From: an uncultured Bacilli bacterium
GTDB lineage: Bacteria > Bacillota_I > Bacilli_A > ML615J-28 > CAG-313
Assembly: GCA_934140285.1 (NCBI GenBank)
Contig: CAKPBI010000001.1
Coordinates: 211,515-275,514 of the forward strand
Length of the DNA stretch: 64,000 nucleotides
Direction of reading: 5' to 3'
The position numbers and the translations under genes were made by a program. This document shows positions 3,681 through 61,893 of this stretch, one piece after another; position 1 is the stretch's first letter; each line of letters opens with the position of its first letter. Under the pieces are notes generated by a model. The model was not told where the DNA came from. It made no database searches and saw only the letters and a program-made list of their open reading frames with translations.

Positions 3681-4022
3681 ATGAAATATTCAAGTGAAAT
3701 GTTAAGAGGAAATACAGAAACAATCATTCTAGCAATATTAATTAATAGTGATAGCTATGGATATGCAGTTTTAAAAAGAATAAATGAACGTGGTGGTGGT
3801 ATCTTTGATTTAAAAGATGCTACAATTTATACTACTATCAAAAGAATGGAAAACGATGGCTTAATTACTACATATTGGGGAGAAGAAAATACTGGTGCTC
3901 GCCGTAAATACTATCATATAACAGAACGTGGTAAAGAATATTACCAACAAAAAATAAAAGAATGGAAAGAAGTAAACCATATATTAAATAACTTAATTTT
4001 AGGTGGTGATGATAATGAGTGA
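3681..4022 (+). CDS. PadR-family transcriptional regulator
   Basis: Winged-helix PadR pattern (GYAVLKRI..TIYTTIKRMENDGLI..YYHITERG); good RBS (AGGTAGGT). Confidence 0.8.
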   Translation: MKYSSEMLRGNTETIILAILINSDSYGYAVLKRINERGGGIFDLKDATIYTTIKRMENDGLITTYWGEENTGARRKYYHITERGKEYYQQKIKEWKEVNHILNNLILGGDDNE

Positions 4023-30666: not shown

Positions 30667-31144
30667 TTGTCTCCTTTTAGTAATAATATATATATTATCA
30701 ATTACTGGATGTAAGAAGACATATATATATCATAATGAAAAGGCAGTAGATTATTTGAATGCATATTATGAATATCTGAGTGATGAAAAACAAGATTTTA
30801 TTGGAATCGATTTAAGAGATTTAGAAACAGCATATGCTTCTGGTCACTTAAAAGGATTTATAAGTTATAACTATAACTTAAAAAGAAAAAGTACAGAAGA
30901 TGAAACTACATACTTACAAAGATGTAGTACAGCTTTTCAAAGTTGGATTCGTCAAAATGTTGATAAAAGAACAACAATCTTTTTGATTGATCAAAATGGA
31001 ACAAACGTTCTATCAGAAGCGGTAAAACTAAAATCTAGTGGATATAAAAATATTCATATTTACGCAGAAGGATATAAAACATTAAATGAATATAACCACA
31101 ACATAATCCCCATTATAACAGGAATTGAAGATTGTGGCTGTTAG
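30644..31144 (+). CDS. Lipoprotein with a rhodanese-like fold in which the active-site Cys is replaced (IDQNG)
   Basis: Lipobox ITGC; IDLRDLETAYASGHLKG pattern; start is ATG 30644 (track start 30629 is TTG). Confidence 0.5.
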   Translation: MKYVKKISCLLLVIIYILSITGCKKTYIYHNEKAVDYLNAYYEYLSDEKQDFIGIDLRDLETAYASGHLKGFISYNYNLKRKSTEDETTYLQRCSTAFQSWIRQNVDKRTTIFLIDQNGTNVLSEAVKLKSSGYKNIHIYAEGYKTLNEYNHNIIPIITGIEDCGC

Positions 31145-31155
31145 AAAGGAAAAAC

Positions 31156-45810: not shown

Positions 45811-45862
45811 GAAGATATCACCAAATATAGGTAAATAACATAAACTATATTAGGTGATAAAA

Positions 45863-47122
45863 ATGAATTATTTCTTAGTGGGAATTAAAGGAACTGGCAT
45901 GAGTGCTCTCGCAATGCTTCTAAAAGATTTAGGAAATAACGTAGTGGGTAGTGATGAAAATAAAGAATATTTTACAGATCCATTACTTAAAGAAAAAAGC
46001 ATTAAATGGTATCCATTTGGTTCAAAATTAAATAATGATTATATATATATTATTAGTAATGCTTATGATCAAACAAACGTCGATGTAAAAAGTATTATAG
46101 ATAATAAATTTGAATATTACTATTATCATAATTTCATTGGGAAAAAACTAAAAAAAGATATAATTGCAATTTCAGGTACTCATGGAAAAACTACTACTTC
46201 AACTTTCCTCAAAGAAATGTTAAATAATAAAACATCATTTATTATTGGTGATGGTAGTGGTGGTGGAACCAACAAATCTAATTTATTAGTTCTTGAAGCA
46301 TGTGAATATCGTGATCACTTTTTAAGTTACAAACCTAATATATTAGTAATAAATAATATTGAAATGGATCACCCTGATTACTTTAAAGATATTAATCAAA
46401 TGCTTAATTCATATCAAAGATTAGTTAATCAATCCGATTTAGTAGTAGTAAATTATGATGATTCTAATGTAAAAAAATTAAAATTTAAAGCAGTACTAAA
46501 AGTAGGTACTCAAAAAGATGCAGATGTAAAATATCATATTCTAGATGAAACAAAAGATAAAACAAAAGTTCAAATTATCATTGGTAAAACATCATATGAA
46601 ATATCAGTTCCCTTTGTTGGTAAACACTTAGTTTATGATTACGTAATGGCATATATCATATGTATCCTTCTTGGAGAAAAACCAAATGTAACAAATATTA
46701 ATCTTCCTCACCGAAGAATAGAAGAATACCAATATGGAAATACTATCTTAGTAGATGATTATGCCCATCACCCAACGGAAATTAAATCGTTAATTGAAAC
46801 GCTAAAAAAGAAATATCCTGATTATAAAATTAATGCGGTATTTCAACCACATACATATTCAAGAACATTAGCTTTAAAGAAAGAATTTAAAGAAGCTTTT
46901 GATTTGTTTGATTCAATTTATCTCGCAAAAGTATTTACTTCAAAAAGAGAAAGTGAAAATGTATATCAACAATTAAAAATAAATAAAATATTTAAAAATT
47001 ATCGTTCATTTACTCCTAAAATATTAGATTTAATTGACAAAAAGAAATTTGAATTATGGATATTCTTAGGTGCAGGAACAATAAGTAAATATATAAAAGA
47101 ATTAATAAAAAATGAAAATTAA
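45863..47122 (+). CDS. Mur-ligase-family protein (MurC-like UDP-N-acetylmuramate--L-alanine ligase)
   Basis: N-terminal FLVGIKGTGMSALA..GSDE (MurC Rossmann) and ISGTHGKTTTS P-loop. ATG at 45863 after AGGTGA (track start 45854 is GTG). Confidence 0.7.
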   Translation: MNYFLVGIKGTGMSALAMLLKDLGNNVVGSDENKEYFTDPLLKEKSIKWYPFGSKLNNDYIYIISNAYDQTNVDVKSIIDNKFEYYYYHNFIGKKLKKDIIAISGTHGKTTTSTFLKEMLNNKTSFIIGDGSGGGTNKSNLLVLEACEYRDHFLSYKPNILVINNIEMDHPDYFKDINQMLNSYQRLVNQSDLVVVNYDDSNVKKLKFKAVLKVGTQKDADVKYHILDETKDKTKVQIIIGKTSYEISVPFVGKHLVYDYVMAYIICILLGEKPNVTNINLPHRRIEEYQYGNTILVDDYAHHPTEIKSLIETLKKKYPDYKINAVFQPHTYSRTLALKKEFKEAFDLFDSIYLAKVFTSKRESENVYQQLKINKIFKNYRSFTPKILDLIDKKKFELWIFLGAGTISKYIKELIKNEN

Positions 47123-47294: not shown

Positions 47295-47858
47295 ATGATA
47301 CGCAAGATCGTTAAATTGTTTCTAGTATTGGGCGTGATTCTTTTCAGCATGCTAATAACTTCTTGTTATAAAGAAGAAAAGTTTACATTTAGTGAAGAAA
47401 AATATGAATACGTAGGTGAACAATTTACATTTTATAATGATGTAGAAATTAAATATATTAGTTTGAATTTTACAAGTACAGATGATTCCAATGATAAAAC
47501 TAATATTTTAGTAAATAGAAAAAATAAAACTCCTTATTATGTTGACTTTTATTTTGAAGATGTAAATCAAAAAGGGGTGTTCTGCAATTTTCAATCTTTA
47601 GAAAAAGTTGGTGATCAAACTGACAAATATTATATAGAATTGGATATTTCAAAATTAATTAATGTTGAGAATGCCATAGCAGTAATGGTTTTAACTATTA
47701 CTAATCCTAACTATGAAAATAATGAAATAGCTACTGATGTTGCAACTAGAATAATATTGGAACTAAAAAAATTTACAATTGATAAAACTAATGTCGATGT
47801 GACAGAATATTCATTTCCTTCCAAATTGATATTACAACTAAAAAATGAAAATGAATAA
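47295..47858 (+). CDS. Hypothetical lipoprotein
   Basis: Lipobox LITSC; RBS AAGGGAGG. Confidence 0.6.
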   Translation: MIRKIVKLFLVLGVILFSMLITSCYKEEKFTFSEEKYEYVGEQFTFYNDVEIKYISLNFTSTDDSNDKTNILVNRKNKTPYYVDFYFEDVNQKGVFCNFQSLEKVGDQTDKYYIELDISKLINVENAIAVMVLTITNPNYENNEIATDVATRIILELKKFTIDKTNVDVTEYSFPSKLILQLKNENE

Positions 47859-47905: not shown

Positions 47906-47936
47906 GTTATTGAAAAATAATTAAATGAGGTGCTTT

Positions 47937-48968
47937 ATGAAAGGAGATAACAAATACAGTTCACAAATTAAAATTTATGATGTAGCTGGTGCTGCAGGTG
48001 TATCGCTTGCGACTGTTTCACGTGTTCTTAATCACCCAGAAAAAGTTAAACCAGGAACAAGAGAACGCATAAACAAGATTATACGTGAATTAGGCTACAA
48101 ACCTAATCTAAATGCTAAAGGTCTTGCAAGCTCAAAATCTACGACGGTAGCAGTAGTAGTACCTGAACTAACTAGAAGTAGTATTGCTGGTATGGTAGAT
48201 GGTATTGCTGACTGTGCAATTAAACGTGGTTATTTACTAAGACTTTTTGTTAATAGACCTACACAAAATGTTGATCAAGTAAAAGACAGCGAAAAAGAAC
48301 TTTGGAGCATCGTTATGAGCTCAAGTGTTGATGGTGTTTTATATATCAATGATGAAATAACTGAAGAACACCTAGAAATCATGCGTGATTTAAATACAAG
48401 TTTAGTTTTAACAAATACAGTATGTAGTGATAAAGAAATCCCTTCTGTATCAATTGATTATTTTAAAGCGGCTTATGATATCACCAAAGAAATGATATCA
48501 CGTGGAAATAAAAAAATTTGGATTGTTACAACATTGCGTAAGTATGTTGTTAATGACTTAAAAGTAGAAGGATACTTAAAGGCAATGGAAGAAGCGGGAC
48601 TAGAACCTTATGTATTAAAAGTTCCAGGAAAAACCGAATTGAACCAACCTGAATATCGTGAACATTTAGAGAAAGATCATCCTGATGTCGCAATAGTAGT
48701 ACGTGACTCAATGGCAGTATCTTTAATCAATGTTGCAAGAATACTTCATATTGAAATCCCACAACAAATGCAAGTAATTGGTTTCCAAAATACTAAATAT
48801 GCAGAATTATCAAGACCAACACTTACATGTATCAATACTCCAATTTATGAACTTGGAGAAGCTGCAATGGATTTATTAACAGAATTAATGGAAGATCGTT
48901 TACCAGAAGGAAAATCAATTAATCAATTGATTGACTTTGATATAATTTGGCGTGATTCAACAAAATAG
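47937..48968 (+). CDS. LacI-family transcriptional regulator
   Basis: HTH IYDVAGAAGVSLATVSRVLN; periplasmic-binding-protein-like C-terminal domain. Start is probably ATG 47937 (track start 47925). Confidence 0.85.
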   Translation: MKGDNKYSSQIKIYDVAGAAGVSLATVSRVLNHPEKVKPGTRERINKIIRELGYKPNLNAKGLASSKSTTVAVVVPELTRSSIAGMVDGIADCAIKRGYLLRLFVNRPTQNVDQVKDSEKELWSIVMSSSVDGVLYINDEITEEHLEIMRDLNTSLVLTNTVCSDKEIPSVSIDYFKAAYDITKEMISRGNKKIWIVTTLRKYVVNDLKVEGYLKAMEEAGLEPYVLKVPGKTELNQPEYREHLEKDHPDVAIVVRDSMAVSLINVARILHIEIPQQMQVIGFQNTKYAELSRPTLTCINTPIYELGEAAMDLLTELMEDRLPEGKSINQLIDFDIIWRDSTK

Positions 48969-48970
48969 TA

Positions 48971-49172
48971 GTAAAATAAATGGCACATAGAGAACTACTT
49001 GGACGGTGGAAAAGTAGACAAGTTTATTTTATGAATTACATACATTCCCTATCAACAAAGTGCAAGATATATTCTTGAATGAAGGTGGTACCGCGGGAAT
49101 AATGCAATATGCATTGTTATCGTCCTTTAAAGATTGCTTTTTTAAGCATTTCTTTAGGGGACTTTTATTTTA
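48971..49172 (+). ncRNA. T-box riboswitch leader (tRNA-Tyr responsive) of tyrS
   Basis: Conserved T-box sequence AATGAAGGTGGTACCGCGGG (about 49076-49097). Candidate Stem I GTAAAATAAA...TTTATTTTAT encloses AGAGA and a UAC (Tyr) specifier at 48996-48998. Terminator GTCCTTTAAAG..CTTTAGGGGAC (49122-49162) plus a U-tract lies immediately upstream of the tyrS RBS. Confidence 0.7.
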
Positions 49173-49198
49173 TTATAAAAAGGAAAGAGGAAAACAAA

Positions 49199-50431
49199 AT
49201 GAATTTATTTGAAGAATTACAATGGCGTGGATTAATCCATAATGTTACAGATGAAAAAATTATTGATAAAATTAATAAAGGTGAAGTTACTTTCTATTTA
49301 GGTACTGACCCAACTGGCGATAGTCTACATGTTGGACATATGCTTGTCTTTCTTTTCGCAAAGCGTCTAGAAAGTGTTGGAAATAAACCAATTTTTCTAA
49401 TTGGTGGAGCAACTGGATTTATCGGTGATCCAAAGCCTAGTAGTGAAAGACAATTATTATCTCATGAAATAATTGAACATAATGCAAAGTGTTTATACAA
49501 ACAAGTTTCAAATTTATTTAAATGTGAAATGGTAAACAACTATGATTGGACACATGATATTGATATATTAACATTCCTAAGAAAATATGGTAAATTCTTT
49601 AATGTTAGTTATATGATTAACAAAGAAACAGTAAAAGCAAGACTTGATAGCGGTATTTCATACACTGAATTCTCATATCAAATTTTACAAGCATTAGATT
49701 TTGAACATCTATTAGATACTAAAAATTGTATTCTTCAAATTGGTGGACAAGACCAATGGGGTAATATTACAGGTGGACTTGAATTAATAAGAAAAATCCA
49801 TGGTGCAGATACTGAAGCATATGGTATTACAATCCCTCTTTTCACAAAGAGTGATGGTACTAAATTTGGAAAGAGTGAAGGTGGAGCAATCTGGCTTGAT
49901 CCTGAAAAAACTTCTCCTTACGCATTCTATCAATTTTGGATTAACACCCCAGATAGTGATGTTATAAGAGAATTAAAACAATTCACATTCTTAACAAAAG
50001 AACAAATAGAAGAATTAGAAAAGAGTTTTATGGAAGAACCTCATAAACGTGCTGCTCAAAAAGCTCTTGCTAAAGAAATGACAACAATGGTACATGGTGA
50101 AGAAGCCTACAACCAAGCTGTAAAATTATCAGAAGCTTTATTTAGTGGTGATATTTCTAAATTAACAAAAGCTGAAATTGAAACATTATTTAATGGTGTT
50201 CCATCTATTACAGTAGAAGAAGACCTTAATTTAATTGATGCTTTAGTTGCTGTAAAAGCCGCATCAAGTAAACGTGAAGCTCGTGACTTTATTAACAATG
50301 GTGCAACCTTAGTTAATGGTGTTCAAAATAAAGATTTGAACTTTGTCATTACCAAAGCAAATGCCATCGGTGAAACATACACAGTAATTAGAAGAGGAAA
50401 GAAAAATTACTATTTAATTATTCATAAATAA
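49199..50431 (+). CDS. tyrS: Tyrosine--tRNA ligase
   Basis: HIGH-type motif LHVGHML, KMSKS-type motif KFGKS, C-terminal S4 domain. Start is ATG 49199 after AGGAAAGAGGA. Confidence 0.95.
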   Translation: MNLFEELQWRGLIHNVTDEKIIDKINKGEVTFYLGTDPTGDSLHVGHMLVFLFAKRLESVGNKPIFLIGGATGFIGDPKPSSERQLLSHEIIEHNAKCLYKQVSNLFKCEMVNNYDWTHDIDILTFLRKYGKFFNVSYMINKETVKARLDSGISYTEFSYQILQALDFEHLLDTKNCILQIGGQDQWGNITGGLELIRKIHGADTEAYGITIPLFTKSDGTKFGKSEGGAIWLDPEKTSPYAFYQFWINTPDSDVIRELKQFTFLTKEQIEELEKSFMEEPHKRAAQKALAKEMTTMVHGEEAYNQAVKLSEALFSGDISKLTKAEIETLFNGVPSITVEEDLNLIDALVAVKAASSKREARDFINNGATLVNGVQNKDLNFVITKANAIGETYTVIRRGKKNYYLIIHK

Positions 50432-50443
50432 AAGGAGTATAAA

Positions 50444-51520
50444 ATGTCAAAAATCCAAGAATTTAACAATCTATTACAAGATGCAATTAATGAAGGAGCA
50501 TTTCCAGGTGCAAACTATGCAATAGTTTTTAAAGATAAAGTATTATTTGGTTCCTTTGGAAAGAAAAGTTTAATTCCAAATGTTGAAGAAAATGATATTG
50601 ATACAATCTATGATATGGCATCACTAACAAAAATTGTAAGCACTACAACCGCTGCCTTAAGATTAATTGAAAAAGGAAAACTTCGTTTATATGCACCAGT
50701 AAAAAAATATCTTCCTGAATTCAAATTTGATAATATTTCAATATGGAATTTAATGACACATACCTCAGGATTACCTGAAGGATTGCCTCATGCAAACACT
50801 CTAAGTGATCCAACTGAAGTATGGAATAAAATATTAAATATGGAATTAAAATATGAAACAGGAACTAAAATTCATTATTCAGATTTAGGTTATATTATCC
50901 TTGGAAAAGTTATAGAAAGTATTGTAAAGAAACCTTTAAATGAATTTGTTAAAGAGGAAATTTTTGATAAACTAAATATGAAAGATACAGGCTATCTTCC
51001 AGATTCTTTATTAAGATGTGCCCCAACTGAATATCGTGATGATGCAGTCTTTAAAGGAATTGTTCGTGGAAAAGTTCATGATGAAACATCATATGCTTTA
51101 GGTGGAGTAGCAGGTCATGCTGGTTTATTTTCAACAGTAAAAGATATGGCTAATTATTTACAAATGCTTTTAAATGATGGAATGTTTAATAATGAACACT
51201 TCTTATCAAAGGCAACAATTGATTTATTGTATACCCCACAAGTAGAAGAAAGAAATGGTGTATCATTAGTACTTGAAAGAAGATCAATCGGTTTTGTTAA
51301 TAAAGGTCCAGCCTCATCTGCTGGAGAATTAACAAGTAGTGAAACTATTCTTCATACAGGTTTTACCGGAACTAACATCTGGGTTGATCGAAAGAATGAA
51401 GTAGCTTTCGTACTACTTTCAAACCGTGTTCATCCAACTCGTAAGAATATCTTACATATGGATGCAAGAGCAAGACTTGCTAACTTTATAATCGCAAATC
51501 TTGATGAACTAAAAAAATAA
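50444..51520 (+). CDS. Class-C beta-lactamase-related serine hydrolase
   Basis: S-x-x-K motif (MASLTKIV), YxN-like and HxG elements; RBS AAGGAG; 12 nt after the tyrS stop. Confidence 0.8.
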   Translation: MSKIQEFNNLLQDAINEGAFPGANYAIVFKDKVLFGSFGKKSLIPNVEENDIDTIYDMASLTKIVSTTTAALRLIEKGKLRLYAPVKKYLPEFKFDNISIWNLMTHTSGLPEGLPHANTLSDPTEVWNKILNMELKYETGTKIHYSDLGYIILGKVIESIVKKPLNEFVKEEIFDKLNMKDTGYLPDSLLRCAPTEYRDDAVFKGIVRGKVHDETSYALGGVAGHAGLFSTVKDMANYLQMLLNDGMFNNEHFLSKATIDLLYTPQVEERNGVSLVLERRSIGFVNKGPASSAGELTSSETILHTGFTGTNIWVDRKNEVAFVLLSNRVHPTRKNILHMDARARLANFIIANLDELKK

Positions 51521-51536
51521 AGAAAGGAAAAATACA

Positions 51537-52220
51537 ATGAAAACTATTTTAGCAATCGGTGGTCACATTGGTGACATGGAACTTACCGCTGGTGGCATAA
51601 TGGCTACAAATGCAGTAAGAGGTGGAAAAAACATAATAATGGCACTAACTGCTGGTGAAAGAGGAAACCCTCCTCATATGACAATTCAAGAATACCGTAA
51701 ACAAAAGATTGAAGAAGCAAATAAGTTTGCGGAAATGGTAAATGGTGAAGCAATAGTTTTGAAATATGCTGATGGTGAGCTTCCTAATAATGATGAAGTA
51801 ATTAATGAAGTTGTTGATGTAATTGTAAAATATAAACCAAATGTAATCGTAACACATTGGCAAAGTACAATGCATCGTGACCATAACAACACCCATTTGA
51901 TTGTTCAAGAAGCCCAATTTAGAGCAGGTGTTGTAGGAAATAAAAATGGTGAAAGATTTTATGCGCCCCTTTATTTTTGTGAAAACTGGGAAGACTCAGA
52001 TAACTTTACACCATATGTTTATGTAGATATTACTGAAGGATTTGAATTATGGAAAAAAGCAATTCAAACGCATTGGTTTATTATGAATAGTAGTGACTTT
52101 AAATACTTTGATTACTATACATCACTTGCTCGCTGTCGTGGTGCTTTAATGAAAAAAGGCTATGCTGAATGCTTTGCTGTGCTCGACAGACAAAAGAAAA
52201 TATTTAAGGATGAACTATAA
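51537..52220 (+). CDS. PIG-L/LmbE-family N-acetylglucosaminyl deacetylase
   Basis: N-terminal LAIGGHIGDMELTAGG (variant of the AHPDDE segment); HxxH-type elements; 227 aa. Confidence 0.6.
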   Translation: MKTILAIGGHIGDMELTAGGIMATNAVRGGKNIIMALTAGERGNPPHMTIQEYRKQKIEEANKFAEMVNGEAIVLKYADGELPNNDEVINEVVDVIVKYKPNVIVTHWQSTMHRDHNNTHLIVQEAQFRAGVVGNKNGERFYAPLYFCENWEDSDNFTPYVYVDITEGFELWKKAIQTHWFIMNSSDFKYFDYYTSLARCRGALMKKGYAECFAVLDRQKKIFKDEL

Positions 52221-55159
52221 TGAAGAAAATATTAAGTATATTTTTAAGTCTATTTCTTCTTACAACTTTATCATTTTCTAATATTGTAAATAGTAAAAGT
52301 GATGATGAAGATTTCTTATTTTCGAATAAAAGTGGACCTCTATCAAAAATATATCATTATGGTACAGGTGAACCAGTAACTCTTCCTAAGAAATTTACTG
52401 TCTATGAATCAGAAATGCGTGGAGTATGGGTTGCTACTGTTTACAACATTGCGATTGGTAAACAAAATGGATTGGATAGTGAAGCCATCAATAGTTATAA
52501 AAAAGAATTTCTAACCATTCTTGATCGAATGGAAGAATTTGGAATGAACACATTATTCTTTCAAATAAGACCAAGTAATGATGCTTTTTATAAATCGGAA
52601 TTAAACCCATGGAGTGAATTCCTAGTTAGTGCTGGTGTTGACCCAGGATGGGATCCTCTTGAATGGATGATTGAAGAAACTCACAAACGTGGTTTTGATT
52701 TTCAATGTTGGATGAATGCTTATCGTGTAACAACATATAGTGTTTTAGATGATACAAGCAAAAAAGCAAGTACATACAGCAATGCTGACCTTTTAAAATT
52801 TAAAGAAAAAGCTATTGAAAAACTTGCTCCAAATAATTTTGCAAGGTTACATCCTGAATATGTTGTAATGGGAGAACATGATACAAGATTAATCTTAAAT
52901 CCAAGTGAAATTGCAGTTCAAGATTTTATTGTCGCAACCTTGAAAGAAATCATTGAAAATTATGATATTGACGGTATGCATTTTGATGACTACTTCTATC
53001 TAAATGGTTCTGTATCAAGTGATAAAGTTAATACTAACTTTGCTGGTGGAGAAAAATATGATAGTTCCTTATCAGGAAAAAATACCCTAAATGATTTAGG
53101 AAACTACCAAGAATACTTAAATAATGATCCTAAGTATGCTCATATGGAAAGAGGATATTCACTAGGTGATTTTAGAAGAGAAAACATCAATGTTATGATG
53201 CGTAGAATTCGTGCTATGGTTGATGAATACAATGAAACTAATAATAAAATAGTTGAATTTGGTTCCAAACCTGCTGCAGTATGGCGTAGTAATTCTGAAT
53301 ATTGTACAGAAAGTGTTGACCGTTGTTCACCAGATGGTTCTAATACCGTATCAGGTGCTTACTCATCATACTCAGATCTTTTTGCTGACACATGGAAATG
53401 GGTAGAAGAAGGATTAGTTGACTATGTAGCTCCACAAGTATATTATGCCTTTGAAGACAATGTTGCTGCCTATGCTGATATCGTTGATTGGTGGGCAAAG
53501 AAGGTAACGGAATTAAATAAAGTACGCACTAGTGAAGGGAAAAAAGAAATCAAATTGTATGTTGCTCATGGAATATATAAATATCGTGATGCTCCATCAC
53601 AATTTTATAATCCATCAGAGATTAGAAACCAAATTGTTTATAATAAAAAATATCCGGTTATTAAAGGTTCGGCTTTATATTCATATGAAAATCTTTATGT
53701 TTTCTCTAGTGAAACTCATGAAAAAGGAATATCATTCTTGAAAAACAATTGGGTTAATAATCCAGTTTATCCAATCCAACGTGGTAATGATGATTCGGAA
53801 GGTTTAGTTGTGAAAGACTATAAATTATCTATGGATACACTAGACAATAGTGTAAATATTACCTTTGATAAAATGCCTTCTTCAAGAGTGTATGGTATAT
53901 ATAAAGTTTTAAAAGGAACAGAATTTACAGCGAGTGTAGATTCACGAATTAATGTAACTTATGATCCATATGTTGCAGGTGAAAAAGCAACACTTAGAAT
54001 TTATGATTATGATGAAAACTATGATTACTATGTAAAAGTAGTATCAACAAATGGTTATGTTTCATCACTTTCAACAAAACTAGATTTTACTAATATGGAA
54101 GAATACGAATCAATTAAAATTAACTATCTATCACAACTTCCAACCGAAATTAAATGTAATGAAACAATAAATTTAAGATTTAACATCTCAAATTTAACAA
54201 ATCATAATCTAGAATATACAGTAAATTATTTTGAAAATGATGTTGACAAAAAAAGAGTAATTGCGAGTGGAAGTATTACTTCAAATACATTTGAAATTCC
54301 ATATAAAGCATACCCATATACAACATCAAATTCACAACTAAAAATAACCATTACTGATGGTACTGCTTCAATTAGTGTTCTTACAAATAAGTTTAATACG
54401 GTAAATGAATATACACAATTAAATGTCAAAGATTTTACCAAAATTCAAACAAGATTTAGTTATAAAACTCCTGTTTCAATTGATGTAAGTATAAATAGTA
54501 CAAATGATTTAGAGTATAATTATGTACTATTAGCGGTTAATGAAGCAAACTATACTACAGAAGAAGTAAAAAAAGGAACATTGAAAGGAAGTACAACCCT
54601 AACTCTTGATGATATTAAGTTAAGTGAGGGAACATACCATTTTGTTCTAAAACTTACTCAAAACGATTATTCAACAACATATACATCTAATACATTTAAA
54701 GTAATTAGAACCAACTATCTAGATAATACTAGTATAAAGATTACTGACTATAATCCAGTTGTAGGGAAAAATATAATTATTAATATTTCAACTTATGGAA
54801 TAAACGGCTATAATTATAAACTACTACTTCTTGATAATGATAATAATATAATCAAAGTTTTGGATGAAGGTATCGTTGAAGGTAATTATATAGGTACAAT
54901 GTATAAAATTAATGAAAGCGACACATCATTTAAGATAAGAGTAATAATTGACAACAAAGGCATTACTGAATATTTAGATAGCGATTTAGTTGTTGTAAAA
55001 AAAGAAGTAGAACCTGATGATCCTACCCCTACTCCAGTTCCAGATGATCCTGTAGTGGATGATAAAAAAGGATGTAATTGTAAAAAATCAATATTGGAAG
55101 TTACTACTTTAATAATTACTTTAACATGTTTTATGTTTATAGTAAGAAAAAGAAAATAG
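52220..55159 (+). CDS. GHL10 (YngK-like, 'family 10 glycosylhydrolase'-like) paralog 1: secreted, Ig/FN3-like C-terminal repeats, KGCNCKK-TM-RKRK C-terminal anchor
   Basis: Signal peptide; GHL10 motifs MRGVWVATV..N, LFFQIRPSNDAFYKSELNPWSE, DPGWDPLEWMIEE and DGMHFDDYFY. Confidence 0.75.
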   Translation: MKKILSIFLSLFLLTTLSFSNIVNSKSDDEDFLFSNKSGPLSKIYHYGTGEPVTLPKKFTVYESEMRGVWVATVYNIAIGKQNGLDSEAINSYKKEFLTILDRMEEFGMNTLFFQIRPSNDAFYKSELNPWSEFLVSAGVDPGWDPLEWMIEETHKRGFDFQCWMNAYRVTTYSVLDDTSKKASTYSNADLLKFKEKAIEKLAPNNFARLHPEYVVMGEHDTRLILNPSEIAVQDFIVATLKEIIENYDIDGMHFDDYFYLNGSVSSDKVNTNFAGGEKYDSSLSGKNTLNDLGNYQEYLNNDPKYAHMERGYSLGDFRRENINVMMRRIRAMVDEYNETNNKIVEFGSKPAAVWRSNSEYCTESVDRCSPDGSNTVSGAYSSYSDLFADTWKWVEEGLVDYVAPQVYYAFEDNVAAYADIVDWWAKKVTELNKVRTSEGKKEIKLYVAHGIYKYRDAPSQFYNPSEIRNQIVYNKKYPVIKGSALYSYENLYVFSSETHEKGISFLKNNWVNNPVYPIQRGNDDSEGLVVKDYKLSMDTLDNSVNITFDKMPSSRVYGIYKVLKGTEFTASVDSRINVTYDPYVAGEKATLRIYDYDENYDYYVKVVSTNGYVSSLSTKLDFTNMEEYESIKINYLSQLPTEIKCNETINLRFNISNLTNHNLEYTVNYFENDVDKKRVIASGSITSNTFEIPYKAYPYTTSNSQLKITITDGTASISVLTNKFNTVNEYTQLNVKDFTKIQTRFSYKTPVSIDVSINSTNDLEYNYVLLAVNEANYTTEEVKKGTLKGSTTLTLDDIKLSEGTYHFVLKLTQNDYSTTYTSNTFKVIRTNYLDNTSIKITDYNPVVGKNIIINISTYGINGYNYKLLLLDNDNNIIKVLDEGIVEGNYIGTMYKINESDTSFKIRVIIDNKGITEYLDSDLVVVKKEVEPDDPTPTPVPDDPVVDDKKGCNCKKSILEVTTLIITLTCFMFIVRKRK
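55004..55159 (+). other. C-terminal tripartite anchor of paralog 1: Pro/Asp-rich linker, KGCNCKK motif (55070), one TM helix, RKRK tail
   Basis: VEPDDPTPTPVPDDPVVDDKKGCNCKKSILEVTTLIITLTCFMFIVRKRK. Confidence 0.7.
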
Positions 55160-55164
55160 TATTT

Positions 55165-55196
55165 AGAGGGCTAAGAAATCTTAGCCCTTTTATTTC
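55165..55196 (+). terminator. Rho-independent terminator
   Basis: AGGGCTAAGA-aat-TCTTAGCCCT followed by TTTATTTCT. Confidence 0.85.
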
Positions 55197-55274
55197 TAAA
55201 ATATTTGCTATTTTAAAGAAAATATTATATAATAAAGTTACTAAAAACAAAAAATAAAAAAAGGGAGAATGACA

Positions 55275-56174
55275 ATGAAAATATATGATACACATAGTGA
55301 TGTTTTTTCAAATTTATACGAAAGAACTTTAGAAGGTATTAAAGATCCTTTTCGAAAATATCATTTAGAAGCCATGAAACAAGGGGAAATACATGGAGGA
55401 ATTTGGGTAGTTTATAGTGAGTATGATTTTAATGTACTAGAAGCCTATAAAATAGCATATGAAGCCTTTAAGCCATATAAAGATAATTATGATGTATTAC
55501 TTGGATTAGAAGGCCTTCGTAATGTTCATACATTAGATGATTTAAATGAAATGTATAATTTTGGTGTAAGACATGCTACGCTTACATGGAATGAAGAAAA
55601 TCATCTAGCAACAGGGGTTGCGGGAGACAAAGATCGTGGATTAACAAACCTTGGAAAAGAATTTTTGGATTATATGTATAAACATCATATGGTCATTGAT
55701 GTATCACACTTAAATATAAAAAGTTTTTATGATGTTTTAGAATATATGCCTCATAATATTATCGCAAGTCATTCTAATGCATATACTTTAAGTGATCATC
55801 GCCGAAACTTAAATGATGATCAACTTAGATTAATGAGAGAAGTAGGAGGATATGTAGGAGCCGTTAGTGCGAGAAACTTTGTTTCGAAAGATCCAAGCCT
55901 ACAAAACACGATCGGTCTTGCCGATCAAATCATTTATCTTGGCGAAAAAATAGGAATTGATCATGTTATGCTTGGCCTTGACATTATGGATTTCTTAAAG
56001 AGCTACGATGATCATAATGCCAACTTAGATGATTTAAGAGGCCATATGGATGCTCAAAATTTAATTAAAGAATTAACGAAGAGAAATCTAACCAAAGAAG
56101 AAATCGAAGGAATAGCTTATAATAATTTTTTAAGATATAAGAAAGGAATAAAAGTTAATGAAGAAATTATTTAA
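55275..56174 (+). CDS. Membrane-dipeptidase (peptidase M19, renal-dipeptidase-like) family protein
   Basis: N-terminal IYDTHSDVF (parallels IDGHNDL) and HSNAYTLSDHRRNLNDDQL; start ATG 55275 after AAGGGAG. Confidence 0.7.
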   Translation: MKIYDTHSDVFSNLYERTLEGIKDPFRKYHLEAMKQGEIHGGIWVVYSEYDFNVLEAYKIAYEAFKPYKDNYDVLLGLEGLRNVHTLDDLNEMYNFGVRHATLTWNEENHLATGVAGDKDRGLTNLGKEFLDYMYKHHMVIDVSHLNIKSFYDVLEYMPHNIIASHSNAYTLSDHRRNLNDDQLRLMREVGGYVGAVSARNFVSKDPSLQNTIGLADQIIYLGEKIGIDHVMLGLDIMDFLKSYDDHNANLDDLRGHMDAQNLIKELTKRNLTKEEIEGIAYNNFLRYKKGIKVNEEII

Positions 56175-58665
56175 AAAAGTAGCCCTTATGGGAATTTGTT
56201 TGTTGGCCTTCTTCATGCTAATTTGTACAACTATATCAAAAGCAGCATGGGATGGAAAATTTGTTCCATATACTCAAGTATCTACAGATATGCGAGCTGT
56301 GTGGGTTGCGACTGTCGGTAATCTTAATATTGACCGTCAACTAGGTACAGATGAAGCTGCCATTTCATCATGGAAGAATGAATATATCAAAATATTAGAT
56401 AATGCTGAAGCAAATCATTTTAATACAATCGTATTCCAAGTAAGACCTGCAAATGATGCATTTTATCCATCTAAGTATAATCCATGGAGTGAGTATTTAG
56501 CAGGATATGGTGTTGATCCTGGCTGGGATCCTCTTGAATGGATGATTGAGGTGACCCATAATAGAGGCCTTGAATATCATGCATGGCTAAATCCTTATCG
56601 TGCATCAACTGGTTCCACTACTTCTATGATGGTAAAAGATCCAGCGACAGGTATTGAAAAAATTAAAGATATTGATGTTACTGAATTAAATAACTTTAAA
56701 GACACATACTTTGGAAGAAAGAAAGAACAAGCAGAAGGCATTGATAATCCAGTTTTTGAAACTGGTAATGAACTTCATCATAATGTTGTGCTTGGAGCAG
56801 AAGATTTGTTTGTTTTAAATCCTGCATCAGAAAAAGTAAGAAATCATGTTACAAATACCATAATGGAAATTGTAGAAAACTATGACATTGATGGAATTCA
56901 TTTTGATGACTATTTTTATCCAAATGATGCATCTTATATAGGAAGTAATGCAGCTTATAAGGGTTATACCTTCTCAACAGAACCATGGGTTGATATGGCT
57001 GATTATGAACAATATGTAAGTGAAACTACGACTCCTCTTAATATATATGATTGGCGCCGTGAAAATGTAAATAAACTAATTAAACAAATTAGTGATGCAG
57101 TTAGAGAAAAGAATAATACTAAAGAAGTAAAATGTGCATTTGGCATAAGCCCCGCATCACGTTGGGCACCTACTGTTGAGGCTTGTTCAAGTGAACCTCA
57201 AAGAGGAGCAGAAGGCGGAATGCTTGGTAGTTGTAATAACTATTATTCATATTCAGACTTATTTGCTGATACCTTAAAATGGGCTAAAGAAGAATGGATA
57301 GATTATATTACTCCTCAAAATTATACTCACCTAAAAGGTGATTATGATGTTATTGCTAAATGGTGGAGTAACGCTTTAAAGGATAGCAAAACTAAACTAT
57401 ATATGGGTACTGCCCTATATCAAGTAAAGGAATCTTGGGGATATGGTTTAACAGAAATGTACTACCAAGTAACTTACAATTCTGCTCATCTTGAAAAAGT
57501 AGAAGGATATTTCATATTTAGTTATTCAAGCTTACTTACTCGTGATGGTGGCCTTGCTATGTCAACTGTCGCAAAATATGCTTGGAAATATAATGCTTTA
57601 ACTCCACTTTATGGAGCATATACATATGATAAAAAGGTAGCACAAAAGGCTACTCCTAAAAATATTAATATTGAAGAAAACCAAGTATCAATTAAAGTTA
57701 ATAAGGTTGACAAAGCTAAGGGTTATGGAATATATGAATTTGATGAACAAACTTCAAACCTTGGTGATTTTGTCCCTTCAAACCTTAGAGCCTTAGAAAT
57801 TAATCCTAATAAAGAACTAACATTTACAAAAAATGAAAACAAGGTATATGCTCTTGTAACTTTTGATCAAGATAACTCAATCTATGAAGATGTTGAATGG
57901 TTAGTACTAGAAAATAATCGCCCAACCGTAGATTTAAAAGTAAACAAAAATCAATTTTTATATGATGAAGAAATAAATGTAGATGTAACAATTGAAGATG
58001 ATGATAGTGATTATTATTATTTAACAATTATATATTCTTCAAATGGTTCATCAATTGGTACGGAAATTGTCAAGGATGAAAAAATAACATCTAAAGAATA
58101 TCATACTACATTTAAAGCACCACATTTTTCTACTAACAATGGAAAGATAATTGTAATAGTAAAAGACATAATTGATACTGTTCAAGTGGATGCACCAATT
58201 TCTATCAAGAGTGCACCACCAGTAGTCACGCTTCCAAAGATTGATGATTTTCATATAAAAACAGTTCAAAACTTTAAAGTAACGATTACAGATGATGAAC
58301 AAACAAACTTAAATTATAAACTATATATCTCTGTAGAAGATGGAGAATATGAACTAATAGATGAAGGAAAAATTAAACCTGGAGAATTAACATTTAATTA
58401 TTCAACAATTATTCCTCATATAAATTGTAAATTCAAACTCGTAGTAAGTGATAATGATAATCAAGTTGAAGTTACATCTAATACATTTAATATTACAAAA
58501 CTAGTAGAACCTGATGATCCAGGTGATAATGATCCAGATACAGAACCTGAACCAGAAGTTCCAACCAAACCAAAGGGTTGTAATTGTAAGAAAAATATTG
58601 AGCTAGTGCTTGCTGGTATAACAATTATTACTTGTGCTTTATTTATTATAAGAAAGAGAGACTAA
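56158..58665 (+). CDS. GHL10 paralog 2: secreted, Ig-like C-terminal repeats, KGCNCKK-TM-RKRD C-terminal anchor
   Basis: Signal peptide; MRAVWVATVGN, TIVFQVRPANDAFYPSKYNPWSE, DPGWDPLEWMIE and DGIHFDDYFY. Confidence 0.75.
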   Translation: MKKLFKKVALMGICLLAFFMLICTTISKAAWDGKFVPYTQVSTDMRAVWVATVGNLNIDRQLGTDEAAISSWKNEYIKILDNAEANHFNTIVFQVRPANDAFYPSKYNPWSEYLAGYGVDPGWDPLEWMIEVTHNRGLEYHAWLNPYRASTGSTTSMMVKDPATGIEKIKDIDVTELNNFKDTYFGRKKEQAEGIDNPVFETGNELHHNVVLGAEDLFVLNPASEKVRNHVTNTIMEIVENYDIDGIHFDDYFYPNDASYIGSNAAYKGYTFSTEPWVDMADYEQYVSETTTPLNIYDWRRENVNKLIKQISDAVREKNNTKEVKCAFGISPASRWAPTVEACSSEPQRGAEGGMLGSCNNYYSYSDLFADTLKWAKEEWIDYITPQNYTHLKGDYDVIAKWWSNALKDSKTKLYMGTALYQVKESWGYGLTEMYYQVTYNSAHLEKVEGYFIFSYSSLLTRDGGLAMSTVAKYAWKYNALTPLYGAYTYDKKVAQKATPKNINIEENQVSIKVNKVDKAKGYGIYEFDEQTSNLGDFVPSNLRALEINPNKELTFTKNENKVYALVTFDQDNSIYEDVEWLVLENNRPTVDLKVNKNQFLYDEEINVDVTIEDDDSDYYYLTIIYSSNGSSIGTEIVKDEKITSKEYHTTFKAPHFSTNNGKIIVIVKDIIDTVQVDAPISIKSAPPVVTLPKIDDFHIKTVQNFKVTITDDEQTNLNYKLYISVEDGEYELIDEGKIKPGELTFNYSTIIPHINCKFKLVVSDNDNQVEVTSNTFNITKLVEPDDPGDNDPDTEPEPEVPTKPKGCNCKKNIELVLAGITIITCALFIIRKRD
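58504..58665 (+). other. C-terminal tripartite anchor of paralog 2: acidic/Pro linker, KGCNCKK motif (58576), TM helix, RKRD tail
   Basis: VEPDDPGDNDPDTEPEPEVPTKPKGCNCKKNIELVLAGITIITCALFIIRKRD. Confidence 0.7.
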
Positions 58666-58667
58666 AT

Positions 58668-59918
58668 ATGAAACTAAATAAATATCGTAGTGATGAATAT
58701 GTACATTATTGGAATTCTGATGAAGTCGTAGAAATTCCTGAATATCATTTTGACAAGCAAAGTGTAAGAGGCGTATGGGTATCTACCGTAGCTAATATTG
58801 ATGTTCCTAAAGGCCTACCTGAAAATGAATATAAAGAATACTTAACAAAGATGATTGAAAATATTGCAAATTATAACATTAACACAATAATTTTCCAAGT
58901 TCGTCCTAACAATGATGCTTTCTATCCATCAAAACTAAATCCATGGTCTAGATATATAACGGGAGAAGAAGGTAAAGATCCTGGTTTTGATGTTTTAAAA
59001 TATGTCATTGAGGAAGCTAAAAAACATGATATTAAAGTACATGCTTGGATGAATCCATATAGAGTATCACAAGCATCATTAGATCAACTAAACATGACAA
59101 AAGAGGAATATTTAGCGACTCTTGCACCAAACAATTTTGCAAGACTTCATCCTGAACACACTATCTTAGATGGTGCTAATAAAATAATTCTTTCTCCAAG
59201 TCATCCCGAAGTAATTGATTTTGTTACTAAAACTATAATGGAAGTTGTTGACAACTACGATGTGGAAGGTGTTCACATAGATGATTACTTCTATCCATAT
59301 GCAAAAATCCCAGAAGAAAGAGAACAAGAAGATTATTTAAAATATCGTTTAGATGAAACACAATGCCTTGATGATTTTAGAAGAATGAATGTAAATAAAA
59401 TGATTAAGAACATTCATGATGCATTGAAAAATTCGTTTAGCAAAAATAATAAAAAAGTTTTATTTGGAATTAGTCCTTTCGCAATCTATCGTACAAATTC
59501 TGCTATTCTTGAAGGTGGTTGGGAAAAAGGATCATACAATGCTGCTGGTGCATTACAATGCTATAGTGAACTTTATTCCGATGTTTACCTTTGGATGAAG
59601 GAAAATTGGATTGATTATGTAGTACCTCAAGTATACTTCCCATTTGAAAGAAAAGATGTTACATACCATGATCTAACAAAATGGTGGAGTGATATTTGTA
59701 ATGAAACACATACGATTCTTTACATCGGTATGGGATTATATCAAATGGGTTCTAATGAAGTATGGCAAAATCCAAATGAAATTGAAAATCAATTAAGATT
59801 TAATTGTAATTTTAATAACGTTGCGGGGACAATCTTTTTCACATATCATGATCTTGTAAAAGGTCAAAATGAAATAAAAGATGAAGCATTAGATACGATT
59901 AAAAAATTATGGAAATAA
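58668..59918 (+). CDS. GHL10 paralog 3: catalytic domain only, with no signal peptide and no C-terminal anchor
   Basis: VRGVWVSTVAN, TIIFQVRPNNDAFYPSKLNPWS, DPGFDVLKYVIEE and EGVHIDDYFY; ATG 2 nt after the upstream stop. Confidence 0.7.
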   Translation: MKLNKYRSDEYVHYWNSDEVVEIPEYHFDKQSVRGVWVSTVANIDVPKGLPENEYKEYLTKMIENIANYNINTIIFQVRPNNDAFYPSKLNPWSRYITGEEGKDPGFDVLKYVIEEAKKHDIKVHAWMNPYRVSQASLDQLNMTKEEYLATLAPNNFARLHPEHTILDGANKIILSPSHPEVIDFVTKTIMEVVDNYDVEGVHIDDYFYPYAKIPEEREQEDYLKYRLDETQCLDDFRRMNVNKMIKNIHDALKNSFSKNNKKVLFGISPFAIYRTNSAILEGGWEKGSYNAAGALQCYSELYSDVYLWMKENWIDYVVPQVYFPFERKDVTYHDLTKWWSDICNETHTILYIGMGLYQMGSNEVWQNPNEIENQLRFNCNFNNVAGTIFFTYHDLVKGQNEIKDEALDTIKKLWK

Positions 59919-59922
59919 ACAA

Positions 59923-59952
59923 AGAGCATCCTAAATTGGATGCTTTTTTCTG
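59923..59952 (+). terminator. Rho-independent terminator
   Basis: AGCATCC-taaatt-GGATGCT followed by TTTTTTC. Confidence 0.85.
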
Positions 59953-59999
59953 CTTTTAGTGACAATTTTTGCTAATTTCATTTTTTTTAAGTTTATCAC

Positions 60000-60028
60000 T
60001 TGAATAAAAACGCTTACTTTGATATAAT
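60000..60028 (+). promoter_or_regulatory. Sigma-A promoter (TTGAAT-17-TATAAT with extended TG) of the GH20-like/SBP genes
   Basis: TTGAATaaaaacgcttactttgaTATAAT. Confidence 0.6.
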
Positions 60029-60078
60029 AAGTTAAGTAAATTGGGAAAAAAGCGCAAACCTTAAGGAGATGGCAAAAT

Positions 60079-61893
60079 ATGTATATAGTTCCTACCCCCA
60101 AGTCTTTCCAAACAACCTCTGGAAAATTCAATTTAAATCGTGAATTAACAATTAAAAACAATGAATTTTCTGAGAATTTAATTGAGATATTAAAGAAAGA
60201 TTTAAAGCTTAAAGACATAAAATTAAATAACGAGACATCATGTATAGATATAGAATTTATATACAGTAAAAAGTTAAAAAAAGAAGAATACTTAATAGTA
60301 GTTAATCCTAACAAAATTGAGATAACAGCATCAACTGAAGCTGGAATCTTTTATGGGATAAAAACATTAAAACAATGTGTTGAAAACAAAAACATTGAGT
60401 GTTTTGAGATAAAAGATTACCCTGATCTTGAAATCAGAGGGGCAATGATTGATATAAGTCGTTCAAAAGTTCCAACATTAAAAACTTTAAAAGAAATAGT
60501 TCAAATTTTATCAGATTTAAAATACAATCATTTAGAACTTTATGTTGAAGGCTTTTCATATGAGTATCAAAGTTTTAAAGATGTGTTAGTTGAAAAAAAT
60601 TATATAACGCTTAATGATTACCTTGAATTGGAAACGTTTACGGAAAAGAACTACATCGATCTTGTTCCAAATCAAAATGGCTTTGGTCATATGAATGCTT
60701 GGCTTATGAAAAAAGAATATCATGAACTAGCTGAATGCCCTGATGGATTTACTATATGGGGATCTCATCGCTCTTCAAGTACTTTAGATCCAACCAATCC
60801 TAAGAGTTTTAAACTTGTGAAAAAGATGTATGATGATATGCTACCACATTTCAAATCAAAATATTTTAATATGAATTTTGATGAACCTTATGAATTAGGT
60901 CACGGAAAAAGCAAAGAAGCATGTGAAAAAACATCAGTTGCGGATGTATACATTGATTTTTTACTACCACTTTATAAGGTAGTTAAAAAATATAAAAAGA
61001 CGCCACTTATGTGGGGTGATGTATTAATTCATCATCCTGAGGCTTTAAATCGTTTACCAAAAGATTTAATCTTTGTAGATTGGGGTTATAACTTAAATTA
61101 TGACTTTGAATCACATGGGAAAATGCTTAGGGAACACGATGTAAAATTTATGATGGCTCCAGGAACTTCAACATGGAGTACCATCACTTCTAGATACTAT
61201 GATATGGTTGGTTCAATAAAAAATAGTTCAGAAGCAACCAAAAAGTATCAAGGACTTGGTCTTTTAGTTACTGATTGGGGTGACATTGGTCATTTACAAT
61301 ATTTGCCATTTAGTTATCCAGGATTTATCTATGGATCTGAATGTGCATGGTCAAAGCCAAATGAAGAAATAATTAAACCATATCTTGATAAATTAGTTGG
61401 TCCTATTTCTTCAAATGCAATTTTAAAACTTGCTACATACACTACTCTTGAAGGTGAGTATCGTGACTATGGTAGCAGATTGTTCAGCGCAATTTTATGG
61501 GCTGAACACTCACAAAATCAAGGAGATCAAATTAAATACTTCTTGGAAAAAATGAAATCAAATCTAATTGAAGATAAAAACCTAAAACAATTAGAAACGA
61601 TGTTTAATGATGTAATAAGAGATATTCGTTTAGAAGACACTTTAGTTAAAGGAGAAATTGAAAACAGCATAAATTTACTTTTAACTTTAGTTGATATTCA
61701 ACGCAATCTAAAAAAAGTGCTTTTCAATGATGAACACAACGTATTTGAAAAAGACATCTTAATTCTTAATGCTTTTATTAAAAAACATCATGAATTATGG
61801 TCAATCAGAAACGTTGAAGCTGGGTTTATTCCTAGCAGTAATCGTATTAAATGGCTAATTAATATTTTGACAGCTATAGATGGAAGGAGATAA
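60079..61893 (+). CDS. GH20-like beta-N-acetylhexosaminidase-family protein (cytoplasmic) with divergent catalytic motifs
   Basis: RGAMIDISRSKVP..LKYNHLELYVEG parallels RGxMLDxxR..N.LHLHLTDD of GH20; NMNFDEPYE lies at the H-x-GGDE position; RBS TAAGGAG. Confidence 0.5.
   Translation: MYIVPTPKSFQTTSGKFNLNRELTIKNNEFSENLIEILKKDLKLKDIKLNNETSCIDIEFIYSKKLKKEEYLIVVNPNKIEITASTEAGIFYGIKTLKQCVENKNIECFEIKDYPDLEIRGAMIDISRSKVPTLKTLKEIVQILSDLKYNHLELYVEGFSYEYQSFKDVLVEKNYITLNDYLELETFTEKNYIDLVPNQNGFGHMNAWLMKKEYHELAECPDGFTIWGSHRSSSTLDPTNPKSFKLVKKMYDDMLPHFKSKYFNMNFDEPYELGHGKSKEACEKTSVADVYIDFLLPLYKVVKKYKKTPLMWGDVLIHHPEALNRLPKDLIFVDWGYNLNYDFESHGKMLREHDVKFMMAPGTSTWSTITSRYYDMVGSIKNSSEATKKYQGLGLLVTDWGDIGHLQYLPFSYPGFIYGSECAWSKPNEEIIKPYLDKLVGPISSNAILKLATYTTLEGEYRDYGSRLFSAILWAEHSQNQGDQIKYFLEKMKSNLIEDKNLKQLETMFNDVIRDIRLEDTLVKGEIENSINLLLTLVDIQRNLKKVLFNDEHNVFEKDILILNAFIKKHHELWSIRNVEAGFIPSSNRIKWLINILTAIDGRR

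Follow-up and report, generated by a model that had tools for sequence, protein, structure and literature searches.

A candidate Cys-containing C-terminal anchor or sorting signal on secreted hydrolases of uncultured Mollicutes-like gut Bacilli

Tripartite C-terminal sorting signals determine which proteins stay on the bacterial surface, and eight attributes of such signals have been set out (Haft 2023, bioRxiv 10.1101/2023.06.07.544157). Signals of this kind that contain a Cys are known so far only in diderm bacteria and in a single order of archaea, and it was only recently that a first enzyme acting on them gained experimental support: MrtX, a CPBP/Rce1-like intramembrane protease that was co-expressed with its substrate in E. 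coli, was found by experiment to cleave MYXO-CTERM in a Cys-dependent manner (Guo, Haft and Wall 2025, PMC11980579). Here we analyze a tail of related build encoded by an uncultured Bacilli bacterium (GCA_934140285.1, contig CAKPBI010000001.1, positions 211,515 to 275,514 of the forward strand). The window is this whole stretch of 64,000 nucleotides (nt), with positions counted from its first letter. It encodes two paralogous secreted hydrolases of family GHL10 that both end with the motif KGCNCKK, a transmembrane (TM) helix and a short basic end. Our results suggest that this tail is very probably an anchor signal that is conserved, selected and modular and whose Cys is required for function, and that it is apparently related to the Cys-containing tripartite C-terminal anchor and sorting signals, although so far uncatalogued.

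Relation of the tail to described sorting signals

As judged from sequence, the nearest analogue of the tail is MYXO-CTERM (TIGR03901, formerly GC_trans_RRR; Haft 2023, bioRxiv 10.1101/2023.06.07.544157). Both present a Gly-Cys signature with an invariant Cys and frequently a second, non-adjacent Cys (GCGC in MYXO-CTERM; GCNC, GCGC or GCSKC in the tail), followed by a TM helix and by a basic cluster at the very end, and both are found on many unrelated secreted proteins per genome. The motif of the tail is, however, flanked by lysines (KKGCKK) and its end reads R-K-K, whereas the end of MYXO-CTERM is Arg-rich. The two signals also differ in their hosts: MYXO-CTERM is restricted to Myxococcota, and relies on an outer membrane and on the type II secretion system (T2SS), whereas the hosts of the tail are labelled Bacilli, Mollicutes, Anaeroplasma and Acholeplasmataceae. 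Mollicutes-like Bacilli as a group have no outer membrane, and the T2SS step of MYXO-CTERM would therefore be without a counterpart in these hosts.

The other Cys-containing CTERM signals, which are hosted by Pseudomonadota, Synergistota and Thermococcales, are likewise restricted to certain lineages and likewise have an invariant Cys that opens a short tail made of a helix and a basic end. What sets them apart is that they have further invariant residues, namely a DP or a Pro within the helix or a GP that follows the Cys, none of which is found in the tail. The signals of the LPXTG/sortase A system share with the tail the order of motif, helix and basic end, the task of keeping secreted enzymes on the cell surface in Bacillota and the use of different anchors in other lineages, but the tail contains no LPXTG-like motif and no hydrophilic spacer between motif and helix. 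Anaeroplasma, Acholeplasmataceae and Acholeplasmatales are wall-less, and a wall-linking transpeptidase would thus lack an acceptor in the wall-less relatives that carry the tail. In the N-terminal lipobox (Lgt/Lsp), too, a cleavable membrane helix has a Cys at its outer end, and a Gly often stands before this Cys, as is the case at position -1 in 58% of the tails. The orientation of the lipobox is nevertheless mirrored, since the Cys of the tail precedes the helix, and positions -3 and -2 are Lys in the tail instead of the Leu and Ala of the lipobox. A last likeness concerns the eukaryotic CAAX box and the C-terminus of K-Ras4B, where a Cys stands beside a run of lysines near the end of the protein; in the model proposed below, a lipidated Cys with a polybasic patch would bind the membrane once a Rce1-type cut has been made. 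The Cys of the CAAX box is, in contrast, cytosolic and three residues from the end, whereas the Cys of the tail is predicted to be extracytoplasmic and precedes a full TM helix.

Seven of the eight attributes listed by Haft (2023) were observed for the tail. It is located at the C-terminus, it occurs several times per genome (twice in the window), and it comprises a membrane-spanning hydrophobic segment and a terminal cluster of two to five basic residues, in which Lys is more frequent than in the usual Arg cluster. Most members present a signal peptide (assessed by eye), and members resemble one another in the tail only. Finally, homologs in other places are tail-less or carry another signal: SLH domains in Paenibacillus, a Por_Secre_tail in homolog L053, no tail in a third paralog of the window and a Cys-free helix in P0108. 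The MYXO-CTERM model (TIGR03901) yielded no match to the tails at E <= 10. The tail of paralog 1 matched the C-terminus of the model of a myxosortase-dependent phytase below threshold (E = 0.062), and tails close to the consensus scored 13-16 bits with Loki-CTERM (cutoff 19.9) and about 14 bits with Heimdall-CTERM (cutoff 24). These sub-threshold matches span only the generic helix and basic end, and membership of the tail in the known CTERM models was rejected on the NCBIfam scores. A full-text literature search turned up no report of a tail of this kind from Mollicutes or Bacilli; the collection searched is incomplete, which makes this absence of evidence only.

Two copies of the tail and conservation of its Cys

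The gene of paralog 2 (56158..58665, + strand) is an open reading frame (ORF) of 835 aa with a match to Pfam GHL10 at E = 9.7e-56. Its N-terminus reads by eye as a signal peptide, MKKLFKKVALMGICLLAFFMLICTTISKAA (56158..56247), with a basic n-region, then a hydrophobic core, and SKA-A at its end. The last 53 residues, VEPDDPGDNDPDTEPEPEVPTKPKGCNCKKNIELVLAGITIITCALFIIRKRD, are the translation of 58504-58662, and the stop codon occupies 58663-58665. They begin with an acidic, Pro-rich linker, VEPDDPGDNDPDTEPEPEVPTKP (58504..58572), whose sequence is free to vary among orthologs and paralogs. The signature motif KGCNCKK follows at 58573..58593; in the tail alignments, Cys808 (58579-58581) corresponds to the invariant Cys column described below, and Cys810 to an optional second Cys. 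The TM segment consists of 19 hydrophobic residues, NIELVLAGITIITCALFII (58594..58650), and contains a Cys that is not conserved. The basic end RKRD (codons at 58651-58662) closes the protein and, with the stop codon, extends over 58651..58665.

Paralog 1 (52220..55159, + strand; 979 aa; Pfam GHL10) has a similarly signal-peptide-like N-terminus, as read from the sequence, and ends with DDKKGCNCKKSILEVTTLIITLTCFMFIVRKRK. Its tail is composed, on translation, of KGCNCKK at 55067-55087, a TM segment at 55088-55144 and RKRK at 55145-55156. Paralog 3 (58668..59918, + strand; 416 aa) contains the catalytic domain only, without signal peptide or tail. All three score well above the GHL10 cutoff of 27.9 bits (PF02638; 163.5, 189.6 and 219.9 bits for paralogs 1 to 3). 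A six-frame scan of all 64 kb identified this tail architecture at only two ORF ends, those of paralogs 1 and 2, and GC.C within a long ORF likewise occurs nowhere else in the window.

The two copies of the tail were compared with the remainder of the proteins. Identity between paralogs 1 and 2 is 34% in the catalytic domain and about 24% in the C-terminal immunoglobulin-like part, whereas the heptad KGCNCKK is identical at 7/7 residues and the helix has the same length of 19 residues. At the basic end, RKR is kept and the last residue differs (RKRK in paralog 1, RKRD in paralog 2). Aligned at the DNA level, the two paralogs of the window and their counterparts in two related genomes differ synonymously in the codons of the motif (GGT/GGA, TGT/TGC, AAT/AAC, AAG/AAA), which indicates that the identity of the heptad has been kept at the protein level and is not the result of recent gene conversion. 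This identity is also far beyond what is expected by chance.

The preliminary description of this DNA had presented 58504-58665 as a second copy of a C-terminal membrane anchor, and the translation of the ORF, with its signal peptide, helix and basic end, agrees with that view. Its proposal that selection acts on the motif itself is supported by the contrast between the identical heptad and the 34% and about 24% identity found elsewhere, by the synonymous codon differences and by the invariance of the Cys. Its statement that neither the signal peptide nor the anchor is present in paralog 3 was likewise confirmed by the sequence of that protein. The motif, the TM length and the basic tail had been said to be retained exactly; this is true of the heptad and of the 19-residue helix, but not of the last residue.

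The junction between paralogs 2 and 3 presents a further feature. The RKRD codons of paralog 2 (AGAAAGAGAGAC) contain a Shine-Dalgarno-like AAGAGAG located 7 nt upstream of the ATG that opens paralog 3; this ATG itself begins 2 nt past the stop codon of paralog 2. From this arrangement, it is possible that the basic end of the tail doubles as a ribosome-binding site for paralog 3.

We then considered 120 homologs of paralog 2, which were picked by overall similarity and hence mostly by their catalytic domain. In 115 of these 120 proteins, a Cys precedes a terminal R/K cluster by 19-26 residues (mode 23), with an uncharged hydrophobic stretch in between; counted over the homologs that bear a tail, the Cys is present in 115 of 117. 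The remaining five are two truncated sequences (P0015 and P0101) and three proteins with a plain helix and no Cys in this zone (P0108 from Haloplasma, P0117 and P0119). Across 65 diverse tails, a single column was found invariant in the tail alignments (A1 and A2): the Cys aligned with the first Cys of GCNC.

Position frequencies were computed over 211 non-identical tails. The residues preceding the Cys are most often K at -3 (51%), K at -2 (54%) and G at -1 (58%), and those following it are K (41%) or G (33%) at +1, K at +2 (74%) and S at +4 (52%). The helix is about 19 residues long, with its last 15 residues uncharged, and presents periodic Ser/Ala at positions -19, -13, -10 and -7 from the Arg. 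Its last residue is L in 59% of the tails and precedes a basic cluster of R (86%), K (88%) and K/R (90%); the protein ends 3-6 residues past the start of this cluster. The consensus of the tail is thus KKGC-K-S / TM / LRKK. A second Cys was found in only 49 of the 211 tails, mostly two residues from the first, and some tails read KKGCGCGK or present the variant GCSKC. Both paralogs of the nearest species (loci L001 and L002) retain this second Cys, which is sporadic elsewhere.

We searched 1.84 billion representative proteins with a profile of the tail and obtained 115 matches at E <= 1e-3. All of these except two, which are repetitive proteins, are located at the extreme C-terminus (113/115). 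Many of the full-length matches do not resemble GHL10: they belong by Pfam to NAGPA, to the purple-acid phosphatases (Metallophos/Pur_ac_phosph_N) or to no family. Once the tail is removed, the sequences of these families share no significant similarity between families by BLAST. Nearly all compared members of GHL10, NAGPA, the phosphatases and the no-family proteins present signal-peptide-like N-termini (MKK, then a hydrophobic core) by eye; P0291, without an evident signal peptide, is an exception or has a miscalled start. Among the homologs of the NAGPA phosphodiester glycosidases, 113 of 120 carry the tail by a strict test, with the Cys in 113/113, and three further homologs have a tail that failed this test. 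The NAGPA family is an independent replicate of the conservation of the Cys, and the recurrence of this residue in unrelated proteins points to strong purifying selection on it.

In three GHL10 proteins (P0036, P0046 and P0049) and two NAGPA proteins (P0441 and P0444), a Cys-rich, zinc-ribbon-like stalk (PKTCxxCGxTEGEKL) stands directly before the tail. This pattern indicates that stalk and tail have presumably been shuffled jointly as a cassette.

Other ends were found on GHL10 proteins of other groups: SLH-like C-terminal ends in Paenibacillus and Cohnella (three SLH domains by Pfam in Paenibacillus L011) and a type IX secretion system sorting domain (Por_Secre_tail) at the end of L053, from an uncultured bacterium. 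A word-index protein search with the tail alignment, in which 164 candidates were scored, returned two C-terminal fragments. The degenerate DNA pattern KGCKK...[L]RKK was also searched in metagenome contigs, where 22 of 120 stretches were real tails at ORF ends and the rest were chance matches. These 22 tails resemble the known tails of GHL10, NAGPA and phosphatases, and their labelled records are human-gut assemblies; this search of metagenome contigs brought nothing new on a sorting enzyme.

These comparisons qualify three further claims of the preliminary description. Conservation of the Cys residues among orthologs, whose absence it had named as a refuting outcome, gave a mixed but on the whole favorable picture: it holds for the first Cys, invariant in the 65 diverse tails, but the second is present in only 49/211. 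The unit KGCNCKK is a local version of the broader signature KKGC-K-S / TM / LRKK, in which the Cys of GC is kept. And the tail, which had been seen as a feature of the GHL10 paralogs, is indeed found on both of them, but its presence on unrelated enzyme families makes that view too narrow.

Anchoring, candidate processing and alternative readings

The organization of these proteins leads to a mechanism in two steps. With high confidence from the sequences alone, the N-terminal signal peptide is predicted to export the enzyme, and the tail to stop transfer and to keep the catalytic domain attached to the cytoplasmic membrane on its outer side; the basic end is predicted to face the cytoplasm, and the invariant Cys to lie exactly where the helix leaves the membrane on the outside. 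In a second step, proposed by analogy, the invariant Cys would be post-translationally modified, most likely with a lipid, and the helix would be recognized and probably removed by an intramembrane protease, as in the case of MYXO-CTERM and myxosortase. By the same analogy, the enzyme would finally be held by its modified C-terminal Cys beside a polybasic patch. The periodicity of Ser/Ala and the fixed L-R-K-K end fit a partner that reads the helix.

We favor, with a probability of about 0.55, the reading that the tail is a lineage-specific modular anchor or sorting signal on secreted hydrolases of uncultured Mollicutes-like gut Bacilli, with modification of the Cys and removal of the helix as a proposed second step. 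Modification and cleavage, taken by themselves and by analogy, are a tentative part of this reading that falls somewhat short of even odds. The more specific proposal of an undescribed sorting pathway in Mollicutes-like Bacilli, in which the Cys is lipidated and the helix is cut by an intramembrane protease of CPBP type or of a new type, is conceivable but less likely than not.

Several observations weigh against this reading. The conservation seen among profile hits is partly circular, since these hits were chosen for their likeness to the profile. Haft's attribute of a signature in which three residues or more are nearly invariant is missing from the tail, in which the Cys alone is invariant, and no sorting-signal model of Pfam or NCBIfam (June 2026) reached its cutoff with the tail. 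The four signals with a Cys that have been described so far are all from diderm bacteria or from archaea, and what a single-membrane cell would gain from swapping a helix for a lipid is unclear. A permanent TM anchor explains the topology equally well, modification and cleavage being drawn from analogy. Finally, inspection of the window and of 40 multi-pass ORFs from about 535 kb of DNA surrounding tail genes revealed no CPBP, rhomboid, sortase or exosortase gene. The multi-pass proteins of the window are a no-family protein with six TM segments (4003-4806), a DUF6320 protein (6845-7543), a transporter and a P-type ATPase, and the 40 ORFs near tail genes encode ABC permeases, Yip1, DUF624, QueT, TspO, YitT, DUF1189, CDP-OH transferase and similar proteins. 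The lack of such an enzyme near tail genes would also be expected if it were a housekeeping enzyme with many clients.

The strongest alternative is that the tail is a plain and permanent C-terminal TM anchor, served by no sorting enzyme of its own, which reached different families through domain shuffling. The Cys and lysines beside the membrane would then have a local role, such as disulfide-linked dimerization, thiol or metal chemistry, contact with anionic lipids or teichoic acid, or S-acylation without cleavage. A signal peptide, a C-terminal helix and a basic end suffice for type I anchoring, only one residue is invariant, none of the inspected neighborhoods of tail genes contains a processing enzyme, and the movement of the PKTCxxCGxTEGEKL stalk with the tail between GHL10 and NAGPA fits simple shuffling of modules. 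We consider this explanation a credible one, if less than an even bet. Against it, a generic anchor would require neither an invariant Cys that unrelated families all keep at a set distance from their end nor a position-specific pattern in the helix. Moreover, the Cys-free anchors found in the same families or contigs (P0108, P0117, P0119 and an RCC1-repeat protein of L057) look different from the tail, and extracytoplasmic disulfides are uncommon in strict anaerobes.

Two other explanations are far less probable. The tail might belong to a system that is already catalogued (LPXTG/sortase, or MYXO-, JDVT-, Synerg-, CGP-, GlyGly-, PEP- or Loki/Heimdall-CTERM), as the weak sub-threshold matches to the phytase tail (E = 0.062) and to Loki- and Heimdall-CTERM could hint. 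We regard this as very improbable: no model reached its curated cutoff, the weak matches rest on the generic helix and basic end, the tail contains no LPXTG, PEP, GlyGly or CGP motif, and its taxonomic range is unlike that of every listed signal. It is more improbable still that the heptad is a functionless by-product of recent duplication or gene conversion, or of chance. The genes of paralogs 1 and 2 do lie 1 kb apart in one cluster, but the proteins are only 34% identical and the synonymous differences between their motif codons rule out gene conversion as the source of the identical heptad. GC-x-C-x-K is in addition present in both paralogs of L002, whose orthologs are about 52% identical, and the tail recurs in unrelated families.

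Genomic setting, host lineage and significance

The three paralogs are part of a cluster at 47925-61893. Its upstream part encodes a LacI regulator, a TyrRS, a cytosolic PBP4B/AmpH-like serine hydrolase and a PIG-L/BshB1-like deacetylase, and is followed by the surface GHL10 paralog 1, an M19 dipeptidase, the surface paralog 2, the cytosolic paralog 3 and a GH20 hexosaminidase. Cwp19 and DigH, which are relatives of GHL10, cut peptidoglycan glycans, and together with the content of the cluster this activity suggests that the locus resembles a set for scavenging peptidoglycan or amino sugars. As predicted from these genes, it looks like a scavenging set with surface enzymes outside and trimming enzymes inside. 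In related loci, one GHL10 homolog is fused to Amidase_3, an N-acetylmuramoyl-L-alanine amidase, and another presents a C-terminal Cu_amine_oxidN1 domain (L018 9866-12793 and L019 4470-6227); the Amidase_3 fusion supports peptidoglycan as the substrate of the GHL10 family.

Several genomes contain more than one tail gene in close proximity. Loci L057 and L063 each contain three tail genes within 10 kb, namely two NAGPA genes and the gene of an unrelated protein of about 1000 aa, and two tail genes were found in each of L001, L002 and L006-L009. The region around the three genes (L057 1-22268; L063 1-22328) is a conserved glycan-utilization locus that encodes a Yip1-domain membrane protein, DUF5696, ABC permeases, DUF624, GH3 and NagB beside the two tail-bearing NAGPA proteins; the tail-bearing protein of about 1000 aa has no Pfam family. 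The RCC1-repeat protein of L057 ends, in contrast to the tail, with a plain Cys-free helix and a longer cytoplasmic end.

The closest genomic locus (L001) is 92% identical and comes from a human-gut metagenome-assembled genome labelled 'uncultured Bacilli bacterium', and a protein from a human-gut assembly (P0001) is 99% identical to paralog 2. In the more distant L002, orthologs are only about 52% identical and GC-x-C-x-K is kept in both paralogs. The labels of other relatives with the tail are Mollicutes bacterium, Anaeroplasma bactoclasticum, Acholeplasmataceae, Acholeplasmatales, Staphylococcus sp. CAG:324 and Tenericutes. The window has a G+C content of 30% and uses UGA as a stop codon. 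It also encodes a murC-like Mur ligase (45854-47122; 276 bits against a cutoff of 335, with a much weaker score for the mpl model), which suggests that the host may make or recycle peptidoglycan. A wall-less host was therefore dropped as a firm premise, despite the relatives labelled Mollicutes and Anaeroplasma.

Some exported proteins of the window are tail-less and present lipoprotein signals instead: ...ITGC, ...ITSC, ...IIAC and ...ITSC at 30629-31144, 31132-34131, 35247-42797 and 47295-47858, including proteins of 999 aa and 2516 aa. With these lipobox proteins beside the tail proteins, the genome would possess two Cys-based ways of membrane retention. Two uncharacterized gene pairs were noted near the start of the window: a small regulator-like ORF precedes the no-family protein with six TM segments (3681-4806), and a protein of 423 aa that matches no family precedes the DUF6320 membrane protein (5577-7543), which has a zinc-ribbon-like N-terminal start of the form CxxC...CxxC.

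The tail is a cleanly defined addition to the Cys-containing class of sorting signals, and it is absent from the copies of Pfam and NCBIfam that were searched. Its hosts are abundant, uncultured gut Bacilli with reduced genomes, whose surface biology is almost unknown. A hidden Markov model built from alignment A2 could be used to annotate anchored exo-enzymes, such as scavengers of glycans, peptidoglycan and phosphate, and for phylogenetic profiling directed toward a processing enzyme, and the cultivable relatives Anaeroplasma, Acholeplasma and Coprobacillus could offer a testable case. Even if the tail is a permanent anchor only, it would still be a useful predictor of surface localization. 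If it is processed as proposed, these bacteria would carry surface hydrolases that are lipid-anchored at their C-terminus, and this would be the first Cys-CTERM system in Bacillota.

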